Source: an uncultured Candidatus Saccharibacteria bacterium | Lineage (GTDB): Bacteria > Patescibacteriota > JABMPQ01 > JAQVVF01 | NCBI GenBank assembly: GCA_964574655.1 | Contig: CAZNOH010000001.1 | Span: 201,852-265,851, forward strand | Direction of reading: 5' to 3' | DNA: 64,000 bases | Part shown: positions 5,067 through 63,957 of the stretch, in pieces | Layout of the letters: every line of letters starts with the position of its first letter | Numbering within the stretch: the stretch's first letter is position 1 | Position numbers and translations under genes: made by a program | The notes under the pieces: model-generated | The model's database searches: none | What the model was told of the DNA's origin: nothing | The model's input: only the letters and a program-made list of their open reading frames with translations

Positions 5067-5089
5067 ATTTATTAATTATTTTAAAAAAA

Positions 5090-5863
5090 ATGCAATTACC
5101 AAATCTAAAAATTGAATCAGAATTAATTTCAAAATATGTTTTATTGCCTGGCGATCCTGGTCGAGTTGATTTGATTGGAAAAAAATTAAAAAAGTTCAAG
5201 ATTTTTGGCCAGAATCGGGAATTTAGAATTGGCCAGGGATATTATAGAGGAATTTTAATAACAGTATGTTCAACAGGTATTGGTTGTCCTTCAACTGCTA
5301 TTGCAACTGAGGAATTAATAAAAGCGGGTGCAAAAGTTTTAATTCGTGTTGGTACATGTGGAGGAGCTTGGAAATTTGAAATAAAAGAAGGCAGTCTAAT
5401 AATTCCAACTGCTTCAATTCGAGATGAGGGGACAACTAAAGAATACATCGATCAATCTTTTCCGGCTGTTGCAAATTTTGAAGTAATTGATGCACTGATA
5501 GAATCAGCAAAAAAAAGGAAGCAAAAATATTTTGTTGGAATTAATAGAACGCATGACGCATTTTATGGAAATTTTGAATCTATAACGAAATGGGGTAAAT
5601 ATTTGTTGGATGATAAAAAGAATATTGATATGCCAATTTTATCTTCTGAGATGGAAAGTTCAGCTTTATTTGTTATTGCTTGTTTGAGAGGTGTTCGTGC
5701 TGGAGCGATATTGGCTGTAAATTCAAAACCTGAGCCACTGCTGGAAAGGCTGAAAGGCCAGAAGAAAAAAGTAATTACAGAATCAAGTTTAGATTTAACG
5801 AAAAAAACTGTTGAAAAAATGATTGATGTGGTTTTAGAGGCAATATTAATTTTAAATAAATAA
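5090..5863 (+). CDS. Nucleoside phosphorylase of the PNP/UDP family (DeoD/Udp-like)
   Basis: GDPGRVDLIG, STGIGCPS and the TCGG segment are characteristic of the PNP_UDP_1 fold. Confidence 0.65.
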   Translation: MQLPNLKIESELISKYVLLPGDPGRVDLIGKKLKKFKIFGQNREFRIGQGYYRGILITVCSTGIGCPSTAIATEELIKAGAKVLIRVGTCGGAWKFEIKEGSLIIPTASIRDEGTTKEYIDQSFPAVANFEVIDALIESAKKRKQKYFVGINRTHDAFYGNFESITKWGKYLLDDKKNIDMPILSSEMESSALFVIACLRGVRAGAILAVNSKPEPLLERLKGQKKKVITESSLDLTKKTVEKMIDVVLEAILILNK

Positions 5864-9180: not shown

Positions 9181-9250
9181 GATCCACCTACGCTTGCGAG
9201 CTTTGGTGGATAAGTCCGCCTTCGTCCTGTGGGACTTTGGCGGACAAGGG
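9181..9250 (+). repeat. GGCGGACAAG hairpin/leader element, copy A
   Basis: ccacc..ggtgg and gtccgcc..ggcggac stems, followed by a purine-rich SD and an ATG. Homologous copies occur at 12211-12262, 12396-12447 and 17885-17950. Confidence 0.5.
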
Positions 9251-14299: not shown

Positions 14300-14455
14300 T
14301 TTGTGTCGGGGACTAGTATACCGGCAGGCAGGTATGCCCAATGGGGTGGGTAGTGAAGTTTTAGAATTTTTATTCTAATATCGGGGAATAGTATATCGGT
14401 AGTACGCATGTACGGGGTACATGTAGGGGGAGTCCAATTCTCCCTTCCCCGAAAG
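14300..14455. repeat. GC-rich tandemly duplicated structured element (ncRNA candidate)
   Basis: Two diverged copies of about 75 nt (tcggggactagtataccggcaggcagg... and tcggggaatagtatatcggtagtacgc...). Contains the perfect hairpins catgtac-ggg-gtacatg and ggggag..ctccc(t)tcccc. Not coding. Confidence 0.3.
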
Positions 14456-17884: not shown

Positions 17885-17950
17885 TCCGCCTTTGTCCTGC
17901 CCTCGTTTTACTACGGCAGGCAAGCCTGTGGGACTACGGCGGACAAGAAG
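17885..17950 (+). repeat. GGCGGACAAG element, copy D (nested hairpins), directly after the stop
   Basis: tccgcc..ggcgga outer stem and cctgcc..ggcagg inner stem. Contains the gggact..ggcggacaag motif. Confidence 0.5.
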
Positions 17951-23658: not shown

Positions 23659-23761
23659 ACGAATTTATAATTTCTAATTTTTATTAAATTTTTAATTTCT
23701 AATTTCTAATGAACGGAACGAACGGTTTAGAAATTTAAGCATTAGAAATTTAATAGAAATT

Positions 23762-23790
23762 AGAAATTGAAAATTAGAAATTCAGAGAAC
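23762..23790. repeat. TAGAAATT word array
   Basis: The 28-bp string tagaaattagaaattgaaaattagaaatt is identical to 1898-1925. The surrounding 23690-23790 region is an inverted arrangement of tttctaatt / ttagaaatt words around gaacggaacgaacgg. Confidence 0.5.
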
Positions 23791-24896: not shown

Positions 24897-24909
24897 GATG
24901 CTAATTTAC

Positions 24910-24995
24910 AAATCTCATGCCAATCTACTAATTGCTAATATTAATCTAACGATTTGCAATTTGTAGATTGGCATTTTTATTTGTAGATTGGCATC
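24910..24995. repeat. Hairpin element tgccaatctac..gtagattggca with a second gtagattggcat copy
   Basis: A 12-bp inverted repeat flanks a loop of about 40 nt. The 3' arm is tandemly duplicated. Confidence 0.4.
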
Positions 24996-25176
24996 ATGTT
25001 TTATCCTGTGCATTAATAATCTTGCATGATTTTTGTAAGATGTTATATTACAAATAACAAGACAATTTTTGTTTGGTCGACTTGTCAAAAAGATTGTTAA
25101 AAATTTTAATTCGCCTTTGCTTATGCTTTGGCGGATAATAAAAAACAAAATAATAAATAATAATTAATAAATTTTT

Positions 25177-42002: not shown

Positions 42003-42076
42003 AACAAGCGCTGAATTAAAAATTTTTGTGACAAAATTTTTAATGCTGATTTCGAACGCTGATTTGACGCTGATAG
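42003..42076. repeat. Post-stop CGCTGAT array (AGCGCTGAAT..AATGCTGAT..AACGCTGAT..GACGCTGAT)
   Basis: Starts 3 nt after the secY TAA stop and is followed by a terminator. Confidence 0.6.
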
Positions 42077-44272: not shown

Positions 44273-44274
44273 AA

Positions 44275-44415
44275 ATCCTAAATCCTAAGCTCAAAATCCT
44301 AAACAAACTCAAATGACTAAAGTAAAAAAATACAAAATCTGATGTCGGTTTTTGAAATTTGGTTATTTTAATTTTGGATTTATTTAGGATTTAGAATTTA
44401 GTATTTAGAGTTTTT
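44275..44415. repeat. Long AT-rich imperfect palindrome built from AATCCTAA words (forward 3 units, then inverted ttaggattt / tagaattt / tagtattt)
   Basis: Spans the whole map-ruvX spacer. Confidence 0.45.
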
Positions 44416-44929: not shown

Positions 44930-46405
44930 ATGAGAAAGTTTTTAGTAACAAGTTTTTTTTGTGCTGTGTTTTTGTTTTGCTTTTGTGGAATAACGAAGGC
45001 GGCGGAATGGACGGATGTGACAGGAAATCTAACTGGAACATCTATTCATTCTATGATTCAGGCTTCTGATGGTTCTATTTACGCTGGAGGCTATGAGGGT
45101 GATGAGCATGCTAGAGTTTGGAGATATTCGGCTGGTTCTTGGGCTGATATTACTGGAATTTTATCTGGATATCGTGTTTGGTCTCTGGTTCAATCTTCTG
45201 ATAGTTCCATATATGCAGCTAGTGCTGATAAGGTTTGGAGATATTTAGCAGGTTCTTGGACAGATACTGGAACATTAAATGGTGCTTCTGTTGTTTCTCT
45301 GATTCAAGCTTCTGATGGTTCGATATATGCTGGAGGTGAAACTAATGTTGGTTCTGCTAGAGTTTTGAGATATTCAGCTGGTTCTTGGACGAATACTGGA
45401 TTGAGTGATGCTTTTTATGTTTATTCTCTGGTTCAAGCTTTTGATGGTTCGATATATGCTGGAGGTAAAACTAATGTTGGTTCTGCTAGAGTTTGGAAAT
45501 ATTCAGCTGGTTCTTGGACGAATGTTACCGGTGTTTTAGTTGGAACGAGTGTTAATTCTTTGATTCAAGCTTCTGACGGTTCGATATATGCTGGAGGTTA
45601 TAGTGCTGGTGATGGTAGAGATTATGCTAAAGTTTGGAAATATTCAGCTGGTTCTTGGACAGATTTTACTGGAACTTTATCAGGATTTGATATTGGTTCT
45701 TTTATCCAAGCTTCTGATGGATCTATATATGTTAGTTCCGATGATAAAGTTTGGAAATATTCAGCAGGTTCTTGGGTCGAGATTACTTATGGAACATTAG
45801 ACGGAAATTTGTTGAGTCCTTTGATTCAGGTTTCTGATGGTTCGATATTTGTAGGAGGTAGTAATTATTATGTTGCCAAAGTTTGGAAATATACTGTTAG
45901 TCAAGAAGAGCAAGAGCAGGAGCAAGCACAACAAAATCTAGAATCAGGTGACAAAATCATTTTAGAATCAGCCTTGAATCAGCAAACAATTTCCGGCCAA
46001 GATCTAACAATCAGCTTTACAAAGCTTCCAACCAAATTAACTAAAAACAGCGCGTATTGGATGAAATGGAATCAGCTAAGCAAGTATCCAAACAAGACAT
46101 TCTTAAAGAATTGGAAATTAAAGACTAATCTATACAAATACAAAGTCAAGAAAAGCTCTCAGAAATACAAGATCAAAGTATCATTCAAATTCACTAAGAA
46201 GCAATTAAAGAAATACTTGAAGAAAAACAAATTGGCGACAAAATCTAATATTACTTTGAAATACAAACAAGGAACATCTTCTTGGAAAAACTTTACTTCT
46301 GTCTTTACTGATGCCAAGCTAATTAAAAAGGACAAGAAATTTATTGTTAAATACTTTACGCATTATCCGGTTAAGACTCAATATTTTGCGATTGGAGTGA
46401 AATAG
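44930..46405 (+). CDS. Secreted tandem-repeat (beta-propeller-like) protein with a Lys-rich C-terminal domain
   Basis: A signal peptide, then about 9 copies of a roughly 40-aa repeat (VWKYSAGSWT[DN]xTG..SLIQASDGSIYAGG), a QEEQEQEQ linker and a basic tail. Confidence 0.5.
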   Translation: MRKFLVTSFFCAVFLFCFCGITKAAEWTDVTGNLTGTSIHSMIQASDGSIYAGGYEGDEHARVWRYSAGSWADITGILSGYRVWSLVQSSDSSIYAASADKVWRYLAGSWTDTGTLNGASVVSLIQASDGSIYAGGETNVGSARVLRYSAGSWTNTGLSDAFYVYSLVQAFDGSIYAGGKTNVGSARVWKYSAGSWTNVTGVLVGTSVNSLIQASDGSIYAGGYSAGDGRDYAKVWKYSAGSWTDFTGTLSGFDIGSFIQASDGSIYVSSDDKVWKYSAGSWVEITYGTLDGNLLSPLIQVSDGSIFVGGSNYYVAKVWKYTVSQEEQEQEQAQQNLESGDKIILESALNQQTISGQDLTISFTKLPTKLTKNSAYWMKWNQLSKYPNKTFLKNWKLKTNLYKYKVKKSSQKYKIKVSFKFTKKQLKKYLKKNKLATKSNITLKYKQGTSSWKNFTSVFTDAKLIKKDKKFIVKYFTHYPVKTQYFAIGVK

Positions 46406-46451
46406 CAAGCGCTGATTAAACGCTGATTTCCAACGCTGATTTAACGCTGAT
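46405..46451. repeat. Post-stop ACGCTGAT array (4 units; spacings 11, 13 and 11 bp)
   Basis: caaGCGCTGATtaaACGCTGATttccaACGCTGATttaACGCTGATa. Confidence 0.7.
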
Positions 46452-46578: not shown

Positions 46579-47322
46579 ATGAAACTTTCGATAATCATTC
46601 CGGCATATAATGAAGAAAAAAGAATAACAATAACTTTAAATTCTATTAAAGAATATTTGAATAAGCAAGATTATGATTGGGAAGCTATTGTTGTTGATGA
46701 TGGAAGCAAAGACAAGACTCGTGAAGTTGTGAAAAATCTTGATGGTTTTGTTTTGAATGAAAAAAGAGAAAATAAAGGCAAGGGTTATTCAATAAAAGAA
46801 GGGATGCTTTTGGCATCAGGGGATTTTTGTCTTTTTATGGATGCTGATAATGCAACAAAAATCAATGAATTAGATCATTTTTGGAAATATTTTGATCCTC
46901 CTGCGTCCCGAGGGACTTCGGAGGACAAGTCCGATTATGATGTTGTGATTGGTTCTCGTGATATTAAAGGATCAAAGTTAGCAGTGTCTCAAGCTTGGTA
47001 TAAAGAGCTGGCTGGAAAAATCGGTAATTTGTTGATTCAAATCGTAGCCTTGCCTGGTATTCATGATACTCAATGCGGATTTAAGATTTTTAAGCGAGAA
47101 GTTGTGAGAGATGTTTTTCCAATCCAGAAATTAGGCGGATGGGGATTTGATGTTGAAATTTTGGCATTAGCCAAAAAGTTTGGTTATAAAATAAAAGAAG
47201 AGCCGATAACTTGGTTTAATGCTGCTGGAAGCAAAGTAAGTACGGGAGATTATTTGAAAGTTTTTTCTGACCTATTTAAAGTGAGATGGTGGCTGTGGAC
47301 GAATAAATATAAAAAAATGTAG
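46579..47322 (+). CDS. Family 2 glycosyltransferase (dolichyl/polyprenyl-phosphate glycosyltransferase-like)
   Basis: SIIIPAYNEEKRI, DDGSKDKT and a DAD motif. Confidence 0.7.
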   Translation: MKLSIIIPAYNEEKRITITLNSIKEYLNKQDYDWEAIVVDDGSKDKTREVVKNLDGFVLNEKRENKGKGYSIKEGMLLASGDFCLFMDADNATKINELDHFWKYFDPPASRGTSEDKSDYDVVIGSRDIKGSKLAVSQAWYKELAGKIGNLLIQIVALPGIHDTQCGFKIFKREVVRDVFPIQKLGGWGFDVEILALAKKFGYKIKEEPITWFNAAGSKVSTGDYLKVFSDLFKVRWWLWTNKYKKM

Positions 47323-47831: not shown

Positions 47832-47878
47832 CGAGCGCTGATTTTACGCTGATTTTTAACGCTGATTTGACGCTGATA
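47832..47878. repeat. Post-stop ACGCTGAT array (4 units; spacings 11, 13 and 11 bp)
   Basis: cgaGCGCTGATtttACGCTGATttttaACGCTGATttgACGCTGATa. Confidence 0.7.
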
Positions 47879-47930
47879 TTTATTTTTTATGATGGCTGGC
47901 ATGAATTCAAGTTTAAATTTTTAAAATGTT

Positions 47931-48692: not shown

Positions 48693-48838
48693 TGTCCAAG
48701 AAACAAGAAACAAACAAATCTCAAATTAAAATAACCAATTACCAAACTCGTCGTCGAAGGGTTTGATTATTGGTTATTGAATATTGGAATTTGTTTGTAT
48801 TTTGTATCTTGGTTATTAAATCTTATTTATAAATCATT

Positions 48839-50156: not shown

Positions 50157-50196
50157 AAGTATTTGCGATTGCCTTTAATCAAAAGTATTAGAAAAT

Positions 50197-50288
50197 TCTA
50201 CCTGGCTTTAGCCAAGGGGTTGGAGAGCCTTAGCTCTCATTTCTTGTGAACTAAAGTTCATGAACCCCTTGGCTAAAGCCAGGTAGAA
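50197..50288 (+). repeat. 92-nt three-hairpin palindromic element, copy 1 (ncRNA or MITE-like candidate)
   Basis: A perfect 26-bp outer inverted repeat (ttctacctggctttagccaaggggtt / aaccccttggctaaagccaggtagaa) encloses two inner hairpins, gagagc-ctta-gctctc and tgaact-aa-agttca. Confidence 0.6.
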
Positions 50289-50303
50289 ATATCTGAATTT
50301 AGT

Positions 50304-51467: not shown

Positions 51468-52310
51468 TTGATGTTTAATCCATATCAAACAAAATTGGTT
51501 GTAATAAAAAGAGTAATTAAAGAATCTTCTGATGTAAAAAGATTTGTTTTGGAATTTGAAAATAAGTTAGATAAAGAAAATTTTGATTTTATACCAGGAC
51601 AGTTTATTAAGGTTTCAATTCCAGGCTTATGCGATGCGCCGTTTACTTTTGGTTCTAGTCCAAAAAATAGAGATAATTTTGAAATTGCAGTTAGGGGAGT
51701 TGGAAATTTGACCAATTTTCTGAATAGAATGCAAATAGGACAAAAAATAGGAATAAGAGGACCGTATGGAAATGGTTTTCCAATGGATTTAATTAAGAAA
51801 AGAAATACTTTGATTGTGTCTGGCGGTTGTGGTTTTGTGCCTTTTAAATCGATGATAGAAGATTATCTAATTGACAAAAAAAGTTATAAATCTAAGTTCC
51901 AAATTTTTTACGGAGCGAGGTCTTTTGACGAGCTGTTGTTTAAAAGAGATTTTGAAAAATGGGAAAGTAGCGGTATAGATTTAAAGATAACTGTTGATAA
52001 GAATGATGAGAAGTGTGATATTTCTAAATATGGTTGCAATGTTGGTTTGGTAACTGAATTAATTAAAAATGAGGATTTGGTAGAAAAACCAGTTGTCTTG
52101 GTTTGTGGTCCGTCAATAATGGTAAAATTTGTAGTAATGGAATTAGATAAACTGTCTATCCCCCATTCTGATATTTTTGTTTCGTTAGAGGGAAGAATGG
52201 AATGCGGAATAGGAGTGTGTGAGCATTGCGCAATTGGTCCTTATTATGTTTGCAAAGATGGACCAGTGTTTAGTTGGGATAAGATTGAATGGATTCCAAA
52301 CATAGTTTGA
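51468..52310 (+). CDS. Hydrogenase gamma subunit: FAD/NAD(P)-binding oxidoreductase with a C-terminal [2Fe-2S] (AsrB/PyrK-like)
   Basis: FNR-like fold (RxYS-type motif, GGCG) and a C-terminal CGIGVCEHCAIG. Confidence 0.6.
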   Translation: MMFNPYQTKLVVIKRVIKESSDVKRFVLEFENKLDKENFDFIPGQFIKVSIPGLCDAPFTFGSSPKNRDNFEIAVRGVGNLTNFLNRMQIGQKIGIRGPYGNGFPMDLIKKRNTLIVSGGCGFVPFKSMIEDYLIDKKSYKSKFQIFYGARSFDELLFKRDFEKWESSGIDLKITVDKNDEKCDISKYGCNVGLVTELIKNEDLVEKPVVLVCGPSIMVKFVVMELDKLSIPHSDIFVSLEGRMECGIGVCEHCAIGPYYVCKDGPVFSWDKIEWIPNIV

Positions 52311-52411
52311 AGTAAAAATTAAAAAGTAAAAAGGTAAAGGTTGCAAGTAAAAAGTAAAAAGTTACGCGACGATTTTTTTACTTTTTAATTTTAACTTTTG
52401 ACTTTTTTAAC

Positions 52412-58419: not shown

Positions 58420-58851
58420 ATGAAAAAACAAAATAGAAAAAAAATAAACAAGGATGTTACAGTCAGAAGTTTATCAGAAAAAATTGATAAGCGTTTTGAG
58501 CAAGTTGATAAGCGTTTTGATAAGATGATGAAAGTAATGGATAATAGATTTGGTGAGTTGTATAGTTTTTTACAAAAACACATGGTAACAAAAGAGGAAT
58601 TTAATGAAAGATTGTTGAAGTTGGAAAACAGAATTGAGAATATTGAACAAAATTATTCAACGAAGGATGATTTATTGAAAGTAAAAGATGAACTTTTGAC
58701 ATTAATGGATAAAATTATTAATGATTATAAAAAAGATAAACAAGAACATGCTTTTTTCAGTTATCATCTGGAAAGAATTGCAAAATTAGAATATCGGATT
58801 GATAAAATAGAGGGTAAGAAAGTTAAAGACTTAAAATTTACAAATGCATGA
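58420..58851 (+). CDS. Hypothetical coiled-coil protein
   Basis: 143 aa with heptad-like charged repeats. Confidence 0.35.
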   Translation: MKKQNRKKINKDVTVRSLSEKIDKRFEQVDKRFDKMMKVMDNRFGELYSFLQKHMVTKEEFNERLLKLENRIENIEQNYSTKDDLLKVKDELLTLMDKIINDYKKDKQEHAFFSYHLERIAKLEYRIDKIEGKKVKDLKFTNA

Positions 58852-59101
58852 CTTTCATGCGGCGGACAATTTATTAAAGATGGCACTTGAACATGCAAAG
58901 AAAAATAAACTGAGAAAAGTTGACAAAATTAAAATTGAATTAGGAAAATTTGTTGAGCATGGGCAAGAAATATTAGCAGATAATTTGAAATTTAATATTA
59001 AAATGTTGGCTAAAGGTACGATTGCTAAAAATGCAGAAATTGTTATTATTGAGAAACAAGGTGAAAGAGGCTATGAATTAGTAGAGATTGAAGGAGAATA
59101 G
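58844..59101 (+). CDS. Minimal HypA-like nickel metallochaperone lacking the zinc-finger domain
   Basis: MHDFHAADNLLKMALEHAKK parallels the HypA MHE-Ni site plus helix. The C-terminal YELVEIEGE parallels the HypA end. There are no Cys at all (HypA normally has CxxC..CxxC). Confidence 0.45.
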   Translation: MHDFHAADNLLKMALEHAKKNKLRKVDKIKIELGKFVEHGQEILADNLKFNIKMLAKGTIAKNAEIVIIEKQGERGYELVEIEGE

Positions 59102-59103
59102 AT

Positions 59104-59132
59104 GTAGAGACGTCCAATTTGGGCGTCTGTAC
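59104..59132. repeat. GTAGAGACG hairpin element, copy 5
   Basis: gtagagacgtccAATTTgggcgtctgtac. Confidence 0.55.
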
Positions 59133-59147
59133 TTAAAGATTTAAAGT

Positions 59148-60311
59148 ATGAATAAAAAAACAATCAAAGATATTGATGTCAAAAATAAAACAGTTTTAGT
59201 CAGAGCTGATTTTAATGTACCAATTAAAGATGGTAAGATTCTTGACGATTTTAAAATTAAAAAAAGCCTTGATACTATAAATTATTTGATTAAAAATAAT
59301 GCGAAAATTGTTTTGATGTCGCATTTGGGAAAGCCAAAAGGAAAGGTTGTTGAAGATTTAAGATTAGATTCGATTGCGAAAAGATTAAGTGAAATGTTAG
59401 AAAAAAAAGTTGAAAAATTAAATGACTGTATAGGGCAGGAAGTTAATGATAAGGTTAAGCAGGCGAAATTAGGTGATGTGATATTGTTAGAGAATGTTCG
59501 TTTTCATCCTGAAGAAGAGAAAAATGATCCAGAATTTGCTAAGAAATTGGCGAGTTTGGGAGAAATTTTTTGTGAAGATGGGTTTGGATCAGTACATCGC
59601 GCTCATGCATCTGTTTCAGGAATTGCTAAATTTTTGTCAGCTGTTGCAGGATTATTGTTGGAAAAAGAAGTTGATGTTTTGACAGAAGTTTTAGAGAAGC
59701 CAGATCATCCATATTTAGTGATTTTAGGTGGAGCAAAGATTTCAACAAAATTAAATTTGATTAATAAGCTAGCAAAACAGGCGGACAAGCTTTTGGTTGC
59801 AGGTGCATTGTCTAATACTATTTTTCTGGCGAATGGCGTGAATGTTGGCGGATCAATCGTGGAAAAAGAAATGCTAGAGCAAATTAAAAATACAGTTTTA
59901 AAAAATACTAACATTGATATTCCGATTGATGTAATTGTCGGAAAAGATAATGGCGATGGGACGAGAACTGTTGATATTGGGAATGGAATAAGCAGCGATG
60001 AATTTATTTATGATATTGGACCGAAAACAATTGATTTGTTTAAGAGAAAAATTGATAAAGCGAGATTAGTTGTTTGGAATGGGCCAATGGGAAAATTTGA
60101 GAATAAAAAATTTGCAAAAGGTACTGAGAATATTGCAAAAGAATTGGTAAGAGTTAAAAAAGCAGTTGTTGGCGGAGGAGAGACTTCAATGGCAATTCGA
60201 AAATTAGGCTTAGAAGATAAAATTTATTTTTTATCTACTGGTGGGGGAGCAATGCTGGAGTTTTTAGAGGGAAAACTAATGCCGGGAATAGAGTGCTTAT
60301 TAGATAAATAA
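59148..60311 (+). CDS. pgk: Phosphoglycerate kinase
   Basis: RADFNVP, and GGGA in the C-terminal domain. Confidence 0.95.
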   Translation: MNKKTIKDIDVKNKTVLVRADFNVPIKDGKILDDFKIKKSLDTINYLIKNNAKIVLMSHLGKPKGKVVEDLRLDSIAKRLSEMLEKKVEKLNDCIGQEVNDKVKQAKLGDVILLENVRFHPEEEKNDPEFAKKLASLGEIFCEDGFGSVHRAHASVSGIAKFLSAVAGLLLEKEVDVLTEVLEKPDHPYLVILGGAKISTKLNLINKLAKQADKLLVAGALSNTIFLANGVNVGGSIVEKEMLEQIKNTVLKNTNIDIPIDVIVGKDNGDGTRTVDIGNGISSDEFIYDIGPKTIDLFKRKIDKARLVVWNGPMGKFENKKFAKGTENIAKELVRVKKAVVGGGETSMAIRKLGLEDKIYFLSTGGGAMLEFLEGKLMPGIECLLDK

Positions 60312-60325
60312 AATTAATAATATTT

Positions 60326-61567
60326 ATGAAAATAATTAAGATTAGAGCCCGAGAAATTCTTGACTCAAGAGGTGAGCCAACTGTGGAAGTGCGTGTTGAT
60401 TTAGATGGCGGTAAATTTGGCATTGCTAGAGTTCCTTCTGGTGCTTCAACAGGAAAATATGAAGTATTAGAATTGAGAGATAAAGATAAAAAAAGATATG
60501 GCGGGAAAGGAGTGTTGAGAGCTTGCAAAAATGTTAATGATATTATTTCGCAAAGGCTGGTTGGATTATATGCAGATAAGCAAGAAAAAATTGATCGGAC
60601 TTTGATTGCATTAGATGGGACAAAAAATAAATCAAAATTAGGAGCAAATGCGATTCTTGGCGTGTCATTAGCATGTTGTGTAGCAGCAGCTAATTCTAAA
60701 GAAATCGAACTATATCAGTATATCGGCGAAATTTTTGGCAATGATAATTTTGTAATGCCGCAAGCATATTTTAATATTATCAATGGTGGAAAACATGCTG
60801 ACTCTGGATTAGATGTCCAGGAATTTATGATTGTGCCAAAAGCAGTTAATTTTTATGAAAAAGTGAGAGTTGGTTCAGAAATTTTTCATGCTTTGAAAGA
60901 TATTTTGCAAAGAAGAGAATATTCAATTAGTGTTGGTGACGAGGGTGGTTTTGCACCGAAATTAGATAGCAATGAACATGCAATTGAAACTATTTTGAAG
61001 GCAATCGAAGAGGCAGGATATAAGCCAGGAGCTGATGTAAATATTGCTTTAGATGTTGCTGCTTCTTCTTTCTATAGTAAGGAGAAGGGATATTGTTTGA
61101 ATTCTGGCAAGTGCATTGAATCAGATCATTTAATAGCGATGTTTTCGGATTGGATTAGCAAATATCCAATAAAAAGCATTGAAGATCCTCTCGCTCAAGA
61201 TGATTGGGAAGGTTTTAAAAAAATTACTGAAAAGTTAGGAGATAAAATTCAAATAATTGGTGATGATTTGTTTGTAACAAACATTGAAAGAGTAAAAAAA
61301 GGTATTGTTGAAAATTGCGCAAATTCTGTTTTGATAAAACCAAATCAAATTGGTACTTTGACGGAAACTTTTGAATGTATAAAATTAGCAAAATCAAAAG
61401 GCTATGCAACAATGGTTTCGCATCGTTCTGGCGAGACAACTGATACTTTTATTGCTGATCTTTGTGTTGGAACTAATGCCGCACAGATCAAGTCTGGTTC
61501 CTTGTCTCGTGGTGAAAGAGTTTGCAAATATAATCGGTTGATGGAGATTGAGGAGAAGCTTAAATAA
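60326..61567 (+). CDS. eno: Enolase
   Basis: ILDSRGEPTVEV, SHRSGETTD and IKPNQIGT motifs. Confidence 0.95.
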   Translation: MKIIKIRAREILDSRGEPTVEVRVDLDGGKFGIARVPSGASTGKYEVLELRDKDKKRYGGKGVLRACKNVNDIISQRLVGLYADKQEKIDRTLIALDGTKNKSKLGANAILGVSLACCVAAANSKEIELYQYIGEIFGNDNFVMPQAYFNIINGGKHADSGLDVQEFMIVPKAVNFYEKVRVGSEIFHALKDILQRREYSISVGDEGGFAPKLDSNEHAIETILKAIEEAGYKPGADVNIALDVAASSFYSKEKGYCLNSGKCIESDHLIAMFSDWISKYPIKSIEDPLAQDDWEGFKKITEKLGDKIQIIGDDLFVTNIERVKKGIVENCANSVLIKPNQIGTLTETFECIKLAKSKGYATMVSHRSGETTDTFIADLCVGTNAAQIKSGSLSRGERVCKYNRLMEIEEKLK

Positions 61568-61691
61568 TTTTTAATTTATAATTTCAAATTTTAAATAAAT
61601 TTTAAAATATTAATTTCAAAAATGTTTTTTGACGTTTGTTTTAAAATTATATTATTTAAAATTCAATTAAAATTTAAAATTTAAAATTTTT

Positions 61692-63281
61692 ATGATATAT
61701 AAACAAGCAGTTTTAATCATTTTGGATGGATTTGGTATTGCTCCACCAAGCAAGGGAAATTGTGTTATGCAAGCAAAGATGCCATATTATAATGAGTTAC
61801 TAAAAAATTATACTCATACAACAATTCAAGCTTCTGGCGAGGAAGTTGGTTTGCCATGGAGGGATATGGGAAATTCAGAAGTTGGTCATGGCAATTTGGG
61901 AGCAGGCAGAATTTCTTATCAAAGCTTGCCATTAATAAATACAGCAATTTTAAATAAGACTTTTTTTAAAAATGAAGCTTTAATGGGTGCGATTGAGCAT
62001 GTTAAAAAAAATAAGAGTAGTTTACATCTGATGGGTTTGGTCAGCTCTGGGGGTATTCATGCGCATATTGAACACTTGTTTGCGTTATTGAAATTAGCTA
62101 AGCAGAATAAAATAAAAAAAGTATATATTCATTGTTTTATGGATGGTAGAGATATGCCAAAGGATTCAGGCATAGATATGATTACAAAAATTGAAGAAGA
62201 AACGAGCGGATGGTTTTCAGTTGGCAAAATTGCAACAATGAGCGGTAGATATTATGTAATGGATCGTGATGATAATTGGGACAGAGTTGAAAAAGCTTAT
62301 AATGCGATGGTCGGAGCGTCGGAGCGTCGGAGCGTCGGAGCGTCGGAACCAAAGTTTTTTGCGAATCCAATTACGGCAATTAAAGATTCTTATGCTCACA
62401 AAGTTTATGATGAGCAGGTGGAGCCAGTTGTGATTGGAACAAAAGAAAAACCAGTAGCTAAGATTTCTAAAGGCGATTCAATAATATTTTTTAATTATAG
62501 AACTGATCGAGCCAGGCAAATTACTGAAGCTTTTGTTAGCGATGATTTTAAAGGTTTTAAACGTGAAAAAATAGAAGATTTATTTTTTGTTTGTTTTACA
62601 GAATATAAAAAAGGATTATGCAAAAATATTGCCTTTCAGCAGAAAGAAACTCCAAATGGTTTGTCAGAAACAATTAGCAAAAATAATTTAAAACAATTTC
62701 ATGTTGCAGAGACAGAAAAGTTTGCGCATGTGACTTTCTTTTTTAATTGCGGACAAGAAGAACCTTTTGCAGGAGAAATTCACAAAGTTGTAGCCTCGCC
62801 AAAAGTAGAATCTTATGACCAGAAACCAGAAATGTCGGCGCAAGGTGTAACTGAAGAAGTAATGAAAGCAATAAAAGAAAAATATAATTTTATCTTAATT
62901 AATTTCGCTAATCCAGATATGGTCGGGCATACCGGAAATATTTCTGCAACAATAAAGGGTTTGGATTTTGTTGATTCTTGTTTAAAAAAAATTGTGACAG
63001 AAGTTTTGAATAATAATGGCGTTGTAGTTTTGACAGCTGATCATGGTAATTGCGAGGAAAAAATTAATCTGCAAACTAGTAAATCAGAGAAACAACATAC
63101 TGCAAATCCAGTGCCTTTGATTTTAATTGGCAAAGGATTGGAACGAAAATCTGATAATACTGATTTGAGCTTGGAATCACCGACTGGAGCTTTAGCTGAT
63201 GTGGCGCCAACAATTTTAGCATTAATGGGAATTGAAAAACCGGTAGAGATGATAGGAATTGATTTAACTAAAGCGATATAA
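61692..63281 (+). CDS. gpmI: 2,3-bisphosphoglycerate-independent phosphoglycerate mutase (iPGM) carrying an internal GASERRSV repeat insertion
   Basis: iPGM motifs (LILDGFG, MGNSEVGH, ADHGN) and the full 529-aa length. Confidence 0.9.
   Translation: MIYKQAVLIILDGFGIAPPSKGNCVMQAKMPYYNELLKNYTHTTIQASGEEVGLPWRDMGNSEVGHGNLGAGRISYQSLPLINTAILNKTFFKNEALMGAIEHVKKNKSSLHLMGLVSSGGIHAHIEHLFALLKLAKQNKIKKVYIHCFMDGRDMPKDSGIDMITKIEEETSGWFSVGKIATMSGRYYVMDRDDNWDRVEKAYNAMVGASERRSVGASEPKFFANPITAIKDSYAHKVYDEQVEPVVIGTKEKPVAKISKGDSIIFFNYRTDRARQITEAFVSDDFKGFKREKIEDLFFVCFTEYKKGLCKNIAFQQKETPNGLSETISKNNLKQFHVAETEKFAHVTFFFNCGQEEPFAGEIHKVVASPKVESYDQKPEMSAQGVTEEVMKAIKEKYNFILINFANPDMVGHTGNISATIKGLDFVDSCLKKIVTEVLNNNGVVVLTADHGNCEEKINLQTSKSEKQHTANPVPLILIGKGLERKSDNTDLSLESPTGALADVAPTILALMGIEKPVEMIGIDLTKAI
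62311..62347 (+). repeat. Coding microsatellite: GC-rich 8-mer (tcggagcg) repeated 4.6 times
   Basis: tcggagcg x4 + tcgga, read directly from the sequence. It encodes GASERRSVGASERRSVGASE. Confidence 0.85.
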
Positions 63282-63299
63282 AGATATTAATTTTTAATT

Positions 63300-63866
63300 A
63301 TGAAAATAAAAATTGAAGTCAGTGCTCGACATATTCATTTGAGCCAAGAACATTTAGATCAACTTTTTGGAAAAGATCATAAATTAACAAAAAAGTTAGG
63401 TTTGTCGCAAGAAGGTGAATTTGCCTGTGAAGAAACTTTGAAAGTTGTGGGACCAAAAGGGAAAATTGAAAATGTCAGGATTATCGGACCTGTTCGATCA
63501 AAAACTCAAATAGAAGTTTCGAAAACAGATGGTTTTATGCTAGGCAATATTCCTCCTTTGTGTGTTTCTGGTGATGTTGTTGGTTCTGCACCTGTAAAAT
63601 TAGTTGGTCCTAACGGCTCCGTTGATTTATTGGAAGGCATGATCATTGTGATGAGACATGTTCATATATCTATTGGTAAAGCCAAAGAATTAAATTTAGA
63701 AAATGGGCAAAGAGTTTCTGTTTCTTGTCTAGGAGATCGAGGATTATTATTTGATAATGTTGTTGTTAGAGTTAAAGAAAATTTTCAATTCTTTTTTCAG
63801 ATTGATACTGATGAAGCAAATGCGGCTGGTGTTGAAAATGGAGATGTCGGGGAGTTAGTTGTTTAA
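63300..63866 (+). CDS. PduL-type phosphate acyl(acetyl/propanoyl)transferase
   Basis: Two internal repeats, each with an xRHxHxS motif (SARHIHLS and MRHVHISIG). The length of about 190 aa is typical of PduL. Confidence 0.65.
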   Translation: MKIKIEVSARHIHLSQEHLDQLFGKDHKLTKKLGLSQEGEFACEETLKVVGPKGKIENVRIIGPVRSKTQIEVSKTDGFMLGNIPPLCVSGDVVGSAPVKLVGPNGSVDLLEGMIIVMRHVHISIGKAKELNLENGQRVSVSCLGDRGLLFDNVVVRVKENFQFFFQIDTDEANAAGVENGDVGELVV

Positions 63867-63867
63867 T

Positions 63868-63957
63868 TTCTACCTGGCTTTAGCCAAGGGGTTTGAAAGC
63901 TTTAGCTTTCGTACCTGGAGCTAAAGCTCCACAACCCTTCAGCTAAAGCTGAGTAGA
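63868..63957 (+). repeat. 92-nt three-hairpin element, copy 2
   Basis: Its 5' outer arm is identical (26/26) to 50197-50222, and its 3' arm is diverged. The inner hairpins are gaaagc-ttta-gctttc and ggagc-taaa-gctcc: different sequences but the same structure as in copy 1. Confidence 0.6.

Follow-up and report, generated by a model that had tools for sequence, protein, structure and literature searches.

The gpmI gene for cofactor-independent phosphoglycerate mutase (iPGM) carries a perfect, GC-rich octanucleotide array that is in frame, and that we consider to be probably a near-neutral lengthening, through slippage, of a loop that varies among homologues, the enzyme itself being functional. 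A degenerate form of the same tract is found in one related species, and recombination possibly contributed to its spread. The gene lies in a stretch of 64,000 nucleotides from an uncultured environmental Patescibacteria bacterium, which was analysed as a whole and is referred to below as the window.

A perfect octanucleotide array within gpmI

Direct reading of the sequence gives 4.75 copies of (GTCGGAGC) with zero mismatches at positions 62310-62347 of the plus strand, and TRF reported a single array at exactly these coordinates (period 8, 4.8 copies, 100% matches, score 76). An array of tcggagcg at 62311-62347, described beforehand in a sequence-only reading of the window, is therefore real and represents the same array in another rotation. 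The array is closed by a fifth, imperfect unit, GTCGGAAC, which differs by one G>A change and occupies 62342-62349 of the plus strand; when this one mismatch is allowed, the end of the array moves to 62349. The codon-level comparison of the window with the orthologous locus L002 (see below) indicates that this imperfect unit is the one present in duplicate in the orthologue. Four copies of the 8-mer GTCGGAGC are present in the 64-kb window, each of them within the gpmI array, against 0.11 expected from shuffled sequences, and the octanucleotide repeat is unmistakably real and statistically beyond chance.

The base composition of the array is also exceptional. The GC content of the unit is 75%, and no other 38-nt patch of the 64 kb equals the array in GC content (76% for the array, 66% for the next best patch and 32.8% overall). 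Codons that are rare in this DNA are used within the array, including CGG (4% of Arg), GTC (6% of Val) and TCG (8% of Ser), in agreement with the earlier description of the repeat as compositionally foreign with 75% GC. In a search of the 64-kb window for a donor template, GGAGCGTCGGAACC at up to three mismatches matched the tract alone. No unusual folding of the tract was found at the level of RNA (z = -0.73) or DNA (z = +0.65), and Rfam gave zero matches at the gathering score anywhere in the window, of which tRNA-Pro at 14381 is the sole tRNA.

The array encodes residues V207-E219 of iPGM, and the peptide, V207-GASERRSVGASE-P220, is read in frame within the 529-aa open reading frame at 61692-63281, as the sequence-only reading had claimed. 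Three units make 24 nt, so that all three frames are read to give the cyclic peptide VGASERRS, and the array is without a stop codon in all three forward frames. Since the length of the unit is not a multiple of three, the predicted frameshift after gain or loss of units could be reproduced by simulation: addition or removal of one or two units truncates the protein, and the alleles with 0, 2, 3, 5, 6, 8 or 9 units all reach a stop codon at 219-257 aa, while those with 1, 7 or 10 units stay in frame. Two open reading frames on the minus strand over the tract (62182-62370 and 62217-62399) were rejected as spurious, being short, unsupported and overlapping with a strongly supported gene.

The repeat-bearing gene and its product

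The gpmI gene (61692-63281, plus strand) is intact and encodes a protein of 529 aa, as identified with TIGR01307, the Geobacillus iPGM structure (PDB 1EJJ) and Foldseek. The score against TIGR01307 was 613.2 bits, with a cut-off of 330.65, covering residues 4-524, and the HMMER match to 1EJJ extended over residues 4-525 with an E value of 1e-147. The AlphaFold (AF2) model of the protein had a pLDDT of 79, and its Foldseek comparison with 1EJJ (E 7e-58, TM 0.84/0.88) showed the two-domain iPGM fold to be present. The catalytic Ser62 (S62) and the metal and substrate ligands, namely D12, H123, R153, D154, R186, R192, R270, R273, K343, D409, H413, D450, H451 and H469, align to 1EJJ and are invariant among the 16 sequences of the alignment. 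The gene order around gpmI is hypA-pgk-eno-gpmI-PTAC, and this cluster is kept in relatives, the homologues being named 'Patescibacteria group bacterium' in the records. The repeat-bearing gene is thus predicted, on the evidence of alignment and model, to encode a functional iPGM with mutase activity.

A second insert relative to Geobacillus iPGM, of about 10 aa (ERKSDNTDLSLESPTG), is located around residues 483-497 (about 63140-63185). This second insert is common to the Patescibacteria relatives, and lies near the site of the regulatory loop of cyanobacterial iPGAM.

Size and structure of the lengthened loop

Codons 208-220 (GASERRSVGASEP; 62313-62351, plus strand) constitute a loop that is 9 aa longer than in canonical iPGM. 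The insert amounts to 9 aa (27 nt) both against 1EJJ, for which the HMMER alignment shows a 9-residue gap, and against the nearest orthologues; the insertion had been put at about 18 aa from the sequence alone, which is twice its actual size. The insert lies after the helix of residues 196-207 (WDRVEKAYNAMV) and is a coil in the AF2 model. The confidence of the model is low at this site, with pLDDT below 50 at residues 210-213 and an average of 53 for the 10-residue block 211-220, as compared with 83 and 92 for the flanking blocks.

The length of the loop between two anchors was determined for 110 homologues, these being the ones that could be anchored among the 120 best. It ranged from 24 to 41 residues and was mostly 25-26, with 27-31 in nine homologues, including P0003, and 41 in one; the corresponding length in the window protein is 34. 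This natural variation among homologues argues that the loop carrying the insert tolerates changes in length and, together with the low-confidence coil after the helix, makes it reasonable to take the insert, as the sequence-only reading did, for a probable surface loop. The inserted peptide is hydrophilic (GASERRSVG-like), and would therefore suit a flexible loop.

A related tract in orthologous genes

The closest orthologues, with 88% amino acid identity (P0002, P0122 and P0123; loci L003-L006 and L009-L012), carry the canonical loop, and so does P0004 (79%). In these insert-free orthologues the loop reads V/T-L-G-K-G-K-Y (LGKGKY) and is encoded by ordinary AT-rich codons. In a more distant orthologue, P0003 (82%; GCA_041662665.1, locus L002), 6 aa are inserted at the codon position at which the window carries its insert. 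The tract of L002, ATG ACT GGA AAT TGG AGC GTC GGA ACG TCG GAA CCA AAA, consists of GGAGC followed by GTCGGAAC twice, that is, the 8-nt motif of the window in fewer and impure units, with only about two perfect units.

An insert is thus present in two of six related lineages, and the two inserted peptides are unlike each other in length and sequence, GASERRSVGASE in the window and GNWSVGTSE in L002. The peptide SVGTSEPKFF of the orthologues corresponds to SVGASEPKFF of the window, and the two tracts are 9 nt apart in length (one unit plus 1 nt). Orthologues with the same peptide in non-repetitive codons had been named in the sequence-only reading as evidence against it, and this is half the case: a related peptide is indeed present in orthologues, but the DNA that encodes it is the tract itself in a less repetitive form. 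A simple history in which three units were put into the canonical loop was rejected, since even after subtraction of 24 nt the loop exceeds the canonical one by 1 aa, and L002 differs from the window by 9 nt.

The tract was searched for by an exact-pattern scan of the GTDB representatives, and also by a protein-based scan of genomes and a scan of metagenomes. Zero matches to the tract were obtained among the GTDB representatives. The protein-based scan gave only one close relative, STF1_73, with the canonical loop, and the metagenome scan one contig, L008, with the L002-type tract. This JGI metagenome contig (Ga0172379) was assembled independently from another sample and carries exactly the L002 version, and it follows that the tract is biological and not a quirk of one assembly. 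The tract thus predates the perfect array of the window, and the lineages differ in how many units it has and how pure these are.

Conflict of the insert with the gene tree

Over the whole of gpmI, the window joins the insert-free clade, with 57 parsimony-informative sites in favour of this grouping against 26 and 25 for the others, and its nucleotide identity is 0.86-0.87 to the insert-free clade and 0.81 to L002. The canonical loop of the insert-free clade is ancestral and not regained, because the outgroups match it. A candidate short recombination patch of about 60 nt, marked by derived bases shared with L002, was detected at and just downstream of the insert (62336-62396, plus strand). 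Within this patch nine sites group the window with L002 and two group it with clade3, as compared with 40 and 136 elsewhere; the Fisher p value was 1e-4 for the best segment of the scan and 0.005 for the segment chosen a priori, from the start of the insert to +130 nt. This signal, though modest, suggests that short-patch recombination may have moved the insert between the L002 and window lineages.

Origin of the array

The 64-kb window is rich in tandem repeats. A total of 44 non-overlapping TRF arrays were detected, against 6.0 in dinucleotide shuffles, and 18 arrays with a period of 7-8 nt were found, against 0 in the shuffles; 17 of these 18 are AT-rich, imperfect and intergenic, the gpmI array being the only one that is GC-rich, perfect and coding. 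Because the genome is prone to short tandem duplication with a period of 7-8, we infer slippage of an 8-nt periodic seed as the source of the array. A GC-rich stretch with 8-nt periodicity (about GGAGC-GTCGGAAC) would have arisen after helix 196-207 in an ancestor or in a donor lineage, and this GC-rich seed would be common to the window lineage and one related Patescibacteria species. In the window lineage, replication slippage would then have amplified and homogenised GTCGGAGC to 4.75 perfect copies. Selection would retain net length changes divisible by three alone, which would lead to the in-frame allele seen, and nine hydrophilic residues (GASERRSVG-like) would in this way have been added to the flexible loop, away from the conserved catalytic residues. 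In this account the repeat, its reading frame, the size of the insert, the intact enzyme, the related tract of an orthologue and its absence from the closest orthologues are observed, while the mechanism of slippage, the neutrality, the exposure at the surface and the spread by recombination are inferred.

As it stands, the tract is a latent frameshift hotspot, in which a change by one or two units gives a null allele, and it most likely acts as a mutational burden of mildly deleterious effect or as a neutral polymorphism of the loop, and not as a regulated switch. Two of the origins put forward in the sequence-only reading agree with this. A slipped-strand hotspot fits the data in that the array is perfect and non-triplet and that a change by one unit shifts the frame, and a remnant of a repeat insertion fits them in that a degenerate relative exists at the same codon in another species. 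Some observations count against such a history of slippage. The difference of 9 nt between the window and L002 is not one of simple unit number, and the step from about two to about five perfect units by single-unit slippage passes through out-of-frame states that are hard to reconcile with a gene presumed to be indispensable, unless slippage took larger steps or was compensated. The composition of the GC-rich seed is also left unaccounted for by slippage.

Alternative explanations

If the tract were a contingency locus, as the sequence-only reading had also proposed, slippage of the octamer would reversibly switch iPGM on and off and create metabolically heterogeneous or dormant subpopulations of this reduced-genome bacterium. 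The non-multiple-of-three unit within an open reading frame, perfect over 4.75 units, is what such a locus would have, and by the in-silico criterion for phase variability (PMC7383803), which takes octanucleotide tracts from at least 3 units onward, the gpmI tract would be called potentially phase-variable. The frameshift products would lack the C-terminal half of the protein together with the metal ligands D409, H413, D450, H451 and H469, the array is open in the three forward frames, and its history seems to require passage through out-of-frame states. In the protein records, however, only the in-frame allele is represented. An exact look-up of the nine alternative alleles (0-3 and 5-9 units) among 15 billion proteins gave none, the observed allele being present, but the absence of unit-number variants weighs weakly in a lineage known from one sample. 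Comparison of a 182-aa segment around the loop with proteins gave short or partial matches alone, of at most 51% identity, and no truncated product of the window or sister lineages, so that no truncated fragment of the window lineage is on record. The in-frame allele is found in both the NCBI and the Logan assemblies, and the L002 tract, with its two or so perfect units, is identical in two samples. The tract is placed at 39% of the gene and so away from the 5' end, the region in which enrichment of phase-variable tracts is seen (PMC3315296). The class of the gene is equally atypical of phase variation, since gpmI belongs to central glycolysis and to a conserved, operon-like pgk-eno-gpmI cluster, and iPGM falls outside the surface structures, restriction-modification systems and host-interaction factors. 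The tract is also short for a high rate of switching, as judged by the tetranucleotide loci of Haemophilus. With only the in-frame 4-unit allele on record, no truncated product and a gene of core metabolism, the proposed contingency switch is unsupported, and we regard it as very unlikely. Even less probable is its fullest form, namely a true contingency locus in an ultra-small Patescibacteria symbiont that stochastically turns the sole phosphoglycerate mutase of the cell off and on, and with it lower glycolysis and the supply of ATP, the tract having been passed between species by short-patch recombination.

Selection for the peptide itself, and artefacts of assembly, are the other explanations to be weighed against slippage. 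The GASERRSVG peptide might be a functional loop, selected for altered regulation, stability or partner binding of iPGM in the manner of the lineage-specific loop of cyanobacterial iPGAM, such loops of iPGM being able to affect activity and regulation (bioRxiv 10.1101/2024.10.28.619893); the retention of a related insert in two lineages, and its possible transfer between them as a short patch, are in line with such a role. Nevertheless, the closest orthologues are without the insert and keep the canonical loop, the inserted peptides of the window and L002 differ in length and sequence, the confidence of the loop model is low, and the cyanobacterial loop is situated in the other domain, near the equivalent of H462. 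The perfection of the repeat at the DNA level likewise points to recent mutation and not to a conserved peptide, and a functional loop thus appears unlikely. In an artefact of assembly, either a short-k de Bruijn graph would have reduced a longer array to too few units, or the GC-rich stretch would derive from a foreign source or an adapter. The length of the array speaks for an artefact: 38 nt equals k+p-1 at k=31, and a k=31 graph would shorten every longer array of this phase to that length. In addition, both assemblies are probably derived from one run, and the same 24-mer is found in two unrelated IMG/VR contigs. Against an artefact, the exact protein is encoded both by an NCBI contig of 654 kb and by a Logan contig assembled from SRR13723394, the latter being 100% identical to window positions 58768-63956 (5189 bp) with the array included, and the two contigs agree exactly. 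This agreement and the intact frame speak for 38 nt as the true length. The array is in frame with conserved iPGM sequence continuing on both flanks, a diverged tract was recovered at this codon from other samples that were assembled independently, and the occurrences in IMG/VR are ordinary tandem arrays in other contexts. Adapter or foreign sequence was rejected specifically, because the longest exact match to Nextera or TruSeq in the repeat region was 8 nt and the tract is in frame between homologous flanks. An assembly artefact is accordingly highly improbable, the least probable of the explanations weighed here.

Other repeats and hairpins in the window and in relatives

Among the 48 intergenic spacers of at least 50 nt in the window, 23 fold as long hairpins with z of -3 or lower, the strongest having z = -11.9; they include the spacers at 1800-1926, 23662-23782, 24897-25176, 44273-44415, 48693-48838, 50157-50303, 52310-52407 and 61573-61688. 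The spacers that were examined (e.g. 1800-1926, 23662-23782, 52310-52407 and 61573-61688) are AT-rich hairpins with arms made of facing tandem arrays of 7-8 nt. These spacer hairpins may be terminators or processing sites, and no description of hairpins with such 7-8-nt arrays was found in the literature for Patescibacteria. A long hairpin is formed by the eno-gpmI spacer of the window (61568-61691; z = -2.6) and equally by that of L002 (2865-3000; -6.6), L003 (2863-3000; -4.2), L009 (2882-3000; -3.2) and L011 (2879-3000; -5.0). At this spacer the structure is conserved and the primary sequence is not.

The sequence GGGACTnnGG[C/A]GGACAAG occurs three times on the plus strand, within 9213-9250, 17910-17947 and 46896-46933, where 0.02 occurrences are expected. 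The copies are situated in hairpin-like GC-rich patches without a match in Rfam, and further GC-rich patches with CCGGCAGGCAGG are located at 14321 and 34450. A tandem repeat of 129 nt (2.8 copies, 80% matches, TRF score 437) at 45233-45598 lies inside a 491-aa open reading frame (44930-46405), and its nested periodicity of 63 nt suggests a repeat-domain protein. Arrays of 11-13-nt units with the core CGCTGATTT were found at 42045-42074, 46410-46451 and 47836-47882, at gene ends or in spacers; their units are CGCTGATTTAA (3.6 copies), CGCTGATTTTA (4 copies) and GCTGATTTCGAAC (2.5 copies), and they may represent a recurring motif for binding or termination. Between gpmI or PTAC and ackA, the relatives have variable genes such as a PDDEXK_3 nuclease-like gene (L009, 4619-5059) and an N6_N4 methyltransferase gene (L011, 5175-5969), which points to a local hotspot, downstream of the glycolytic cluster, at which genes are inserted.

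As for the two IMG/VR contigs, L093, an AT-rich giant-virus MAG, carries about 4.5 copies of GCGTCGGA at 5352-5391, in an intergenic position directly after a stop codon, and contains 9-nt coding repeats as well. In L094, a GC-rich phage, the octamer array at 5080-5150 faces an inverted array of the related octamer ACGCTCGG. Both arrays are natural and independent of that in gpmI.

Comparison with known systems

The simple-sequence-repeat (SSR) contingency loci of Haemophilus and Neisseria, with tetra- to octanucleotide units, share with gpmI a non-triplet array within an open reading frame, in which a change by one unit truncates the product. They differ from gpmI in that they belong to surface, LOS or restriction-modification genes, whereas gpmI is a central glycolytic gene of an uncultured environmental Patescibacteria bacterium, with a short tract in the middle of the gene and without observed variation in unit number. 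The gpmI tract fits in with the in-frame SSR indels described by Lin and Kussell in 2012 (PMC3315296), for which repeat-driven changes in length are kept where the structure tolerates them and only in-frame outcomes are fixed. That survey dealt mostly with SSRs of short units, with variability concentrated at the protein termini, while the gpmI array has an 8-nt unit, lies in an internal loop and has a GC content far from that of the genome.

The loop of cyanobacterial iPGAM, which tunes the affinity for Mn2+ and the inhibition by PirC (bioRxiv 10.1101/2024.10.28.619893), is, like the gpmI insert, a clade-restricted loop extension within the same enzyme family. The cyanobacterial loop is located in the phosphatase domain near the equivalent of the Mn ligand H462, in contrast to the gpmI insert in the transferase domain after helix 196-207, and it is conserved in its clade and not encoded by a repeat, whereas the gpmI insert is patchy and repeat-encoded. 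In both site and clade conservation, the insert of residues 208-220 thus departs from a regulatory loop of the cyanobacterial type.

Significance

If unit numbers were mixed in the population, the tract would gain in importance: an episymbiont, fermentative and with a reduced genome, that could knock out its glycolysis reversibly would be hedging its bets in an unusual way. A contingency locus at gpmI, if true, would be without precedent in the Candidate Phyla Radiation as a phase-variable switch on core energy metabolism. The main practical value of the tract is as a marker for strain-level typing of the window lineage. Given its probable origin, the gpmI tract would illustrate neatly how a protein loop that tolerates changes in length can be extended by replication slippage, and how such a tract can persist in, and possibly move between, related lineages of Patescibacteria.
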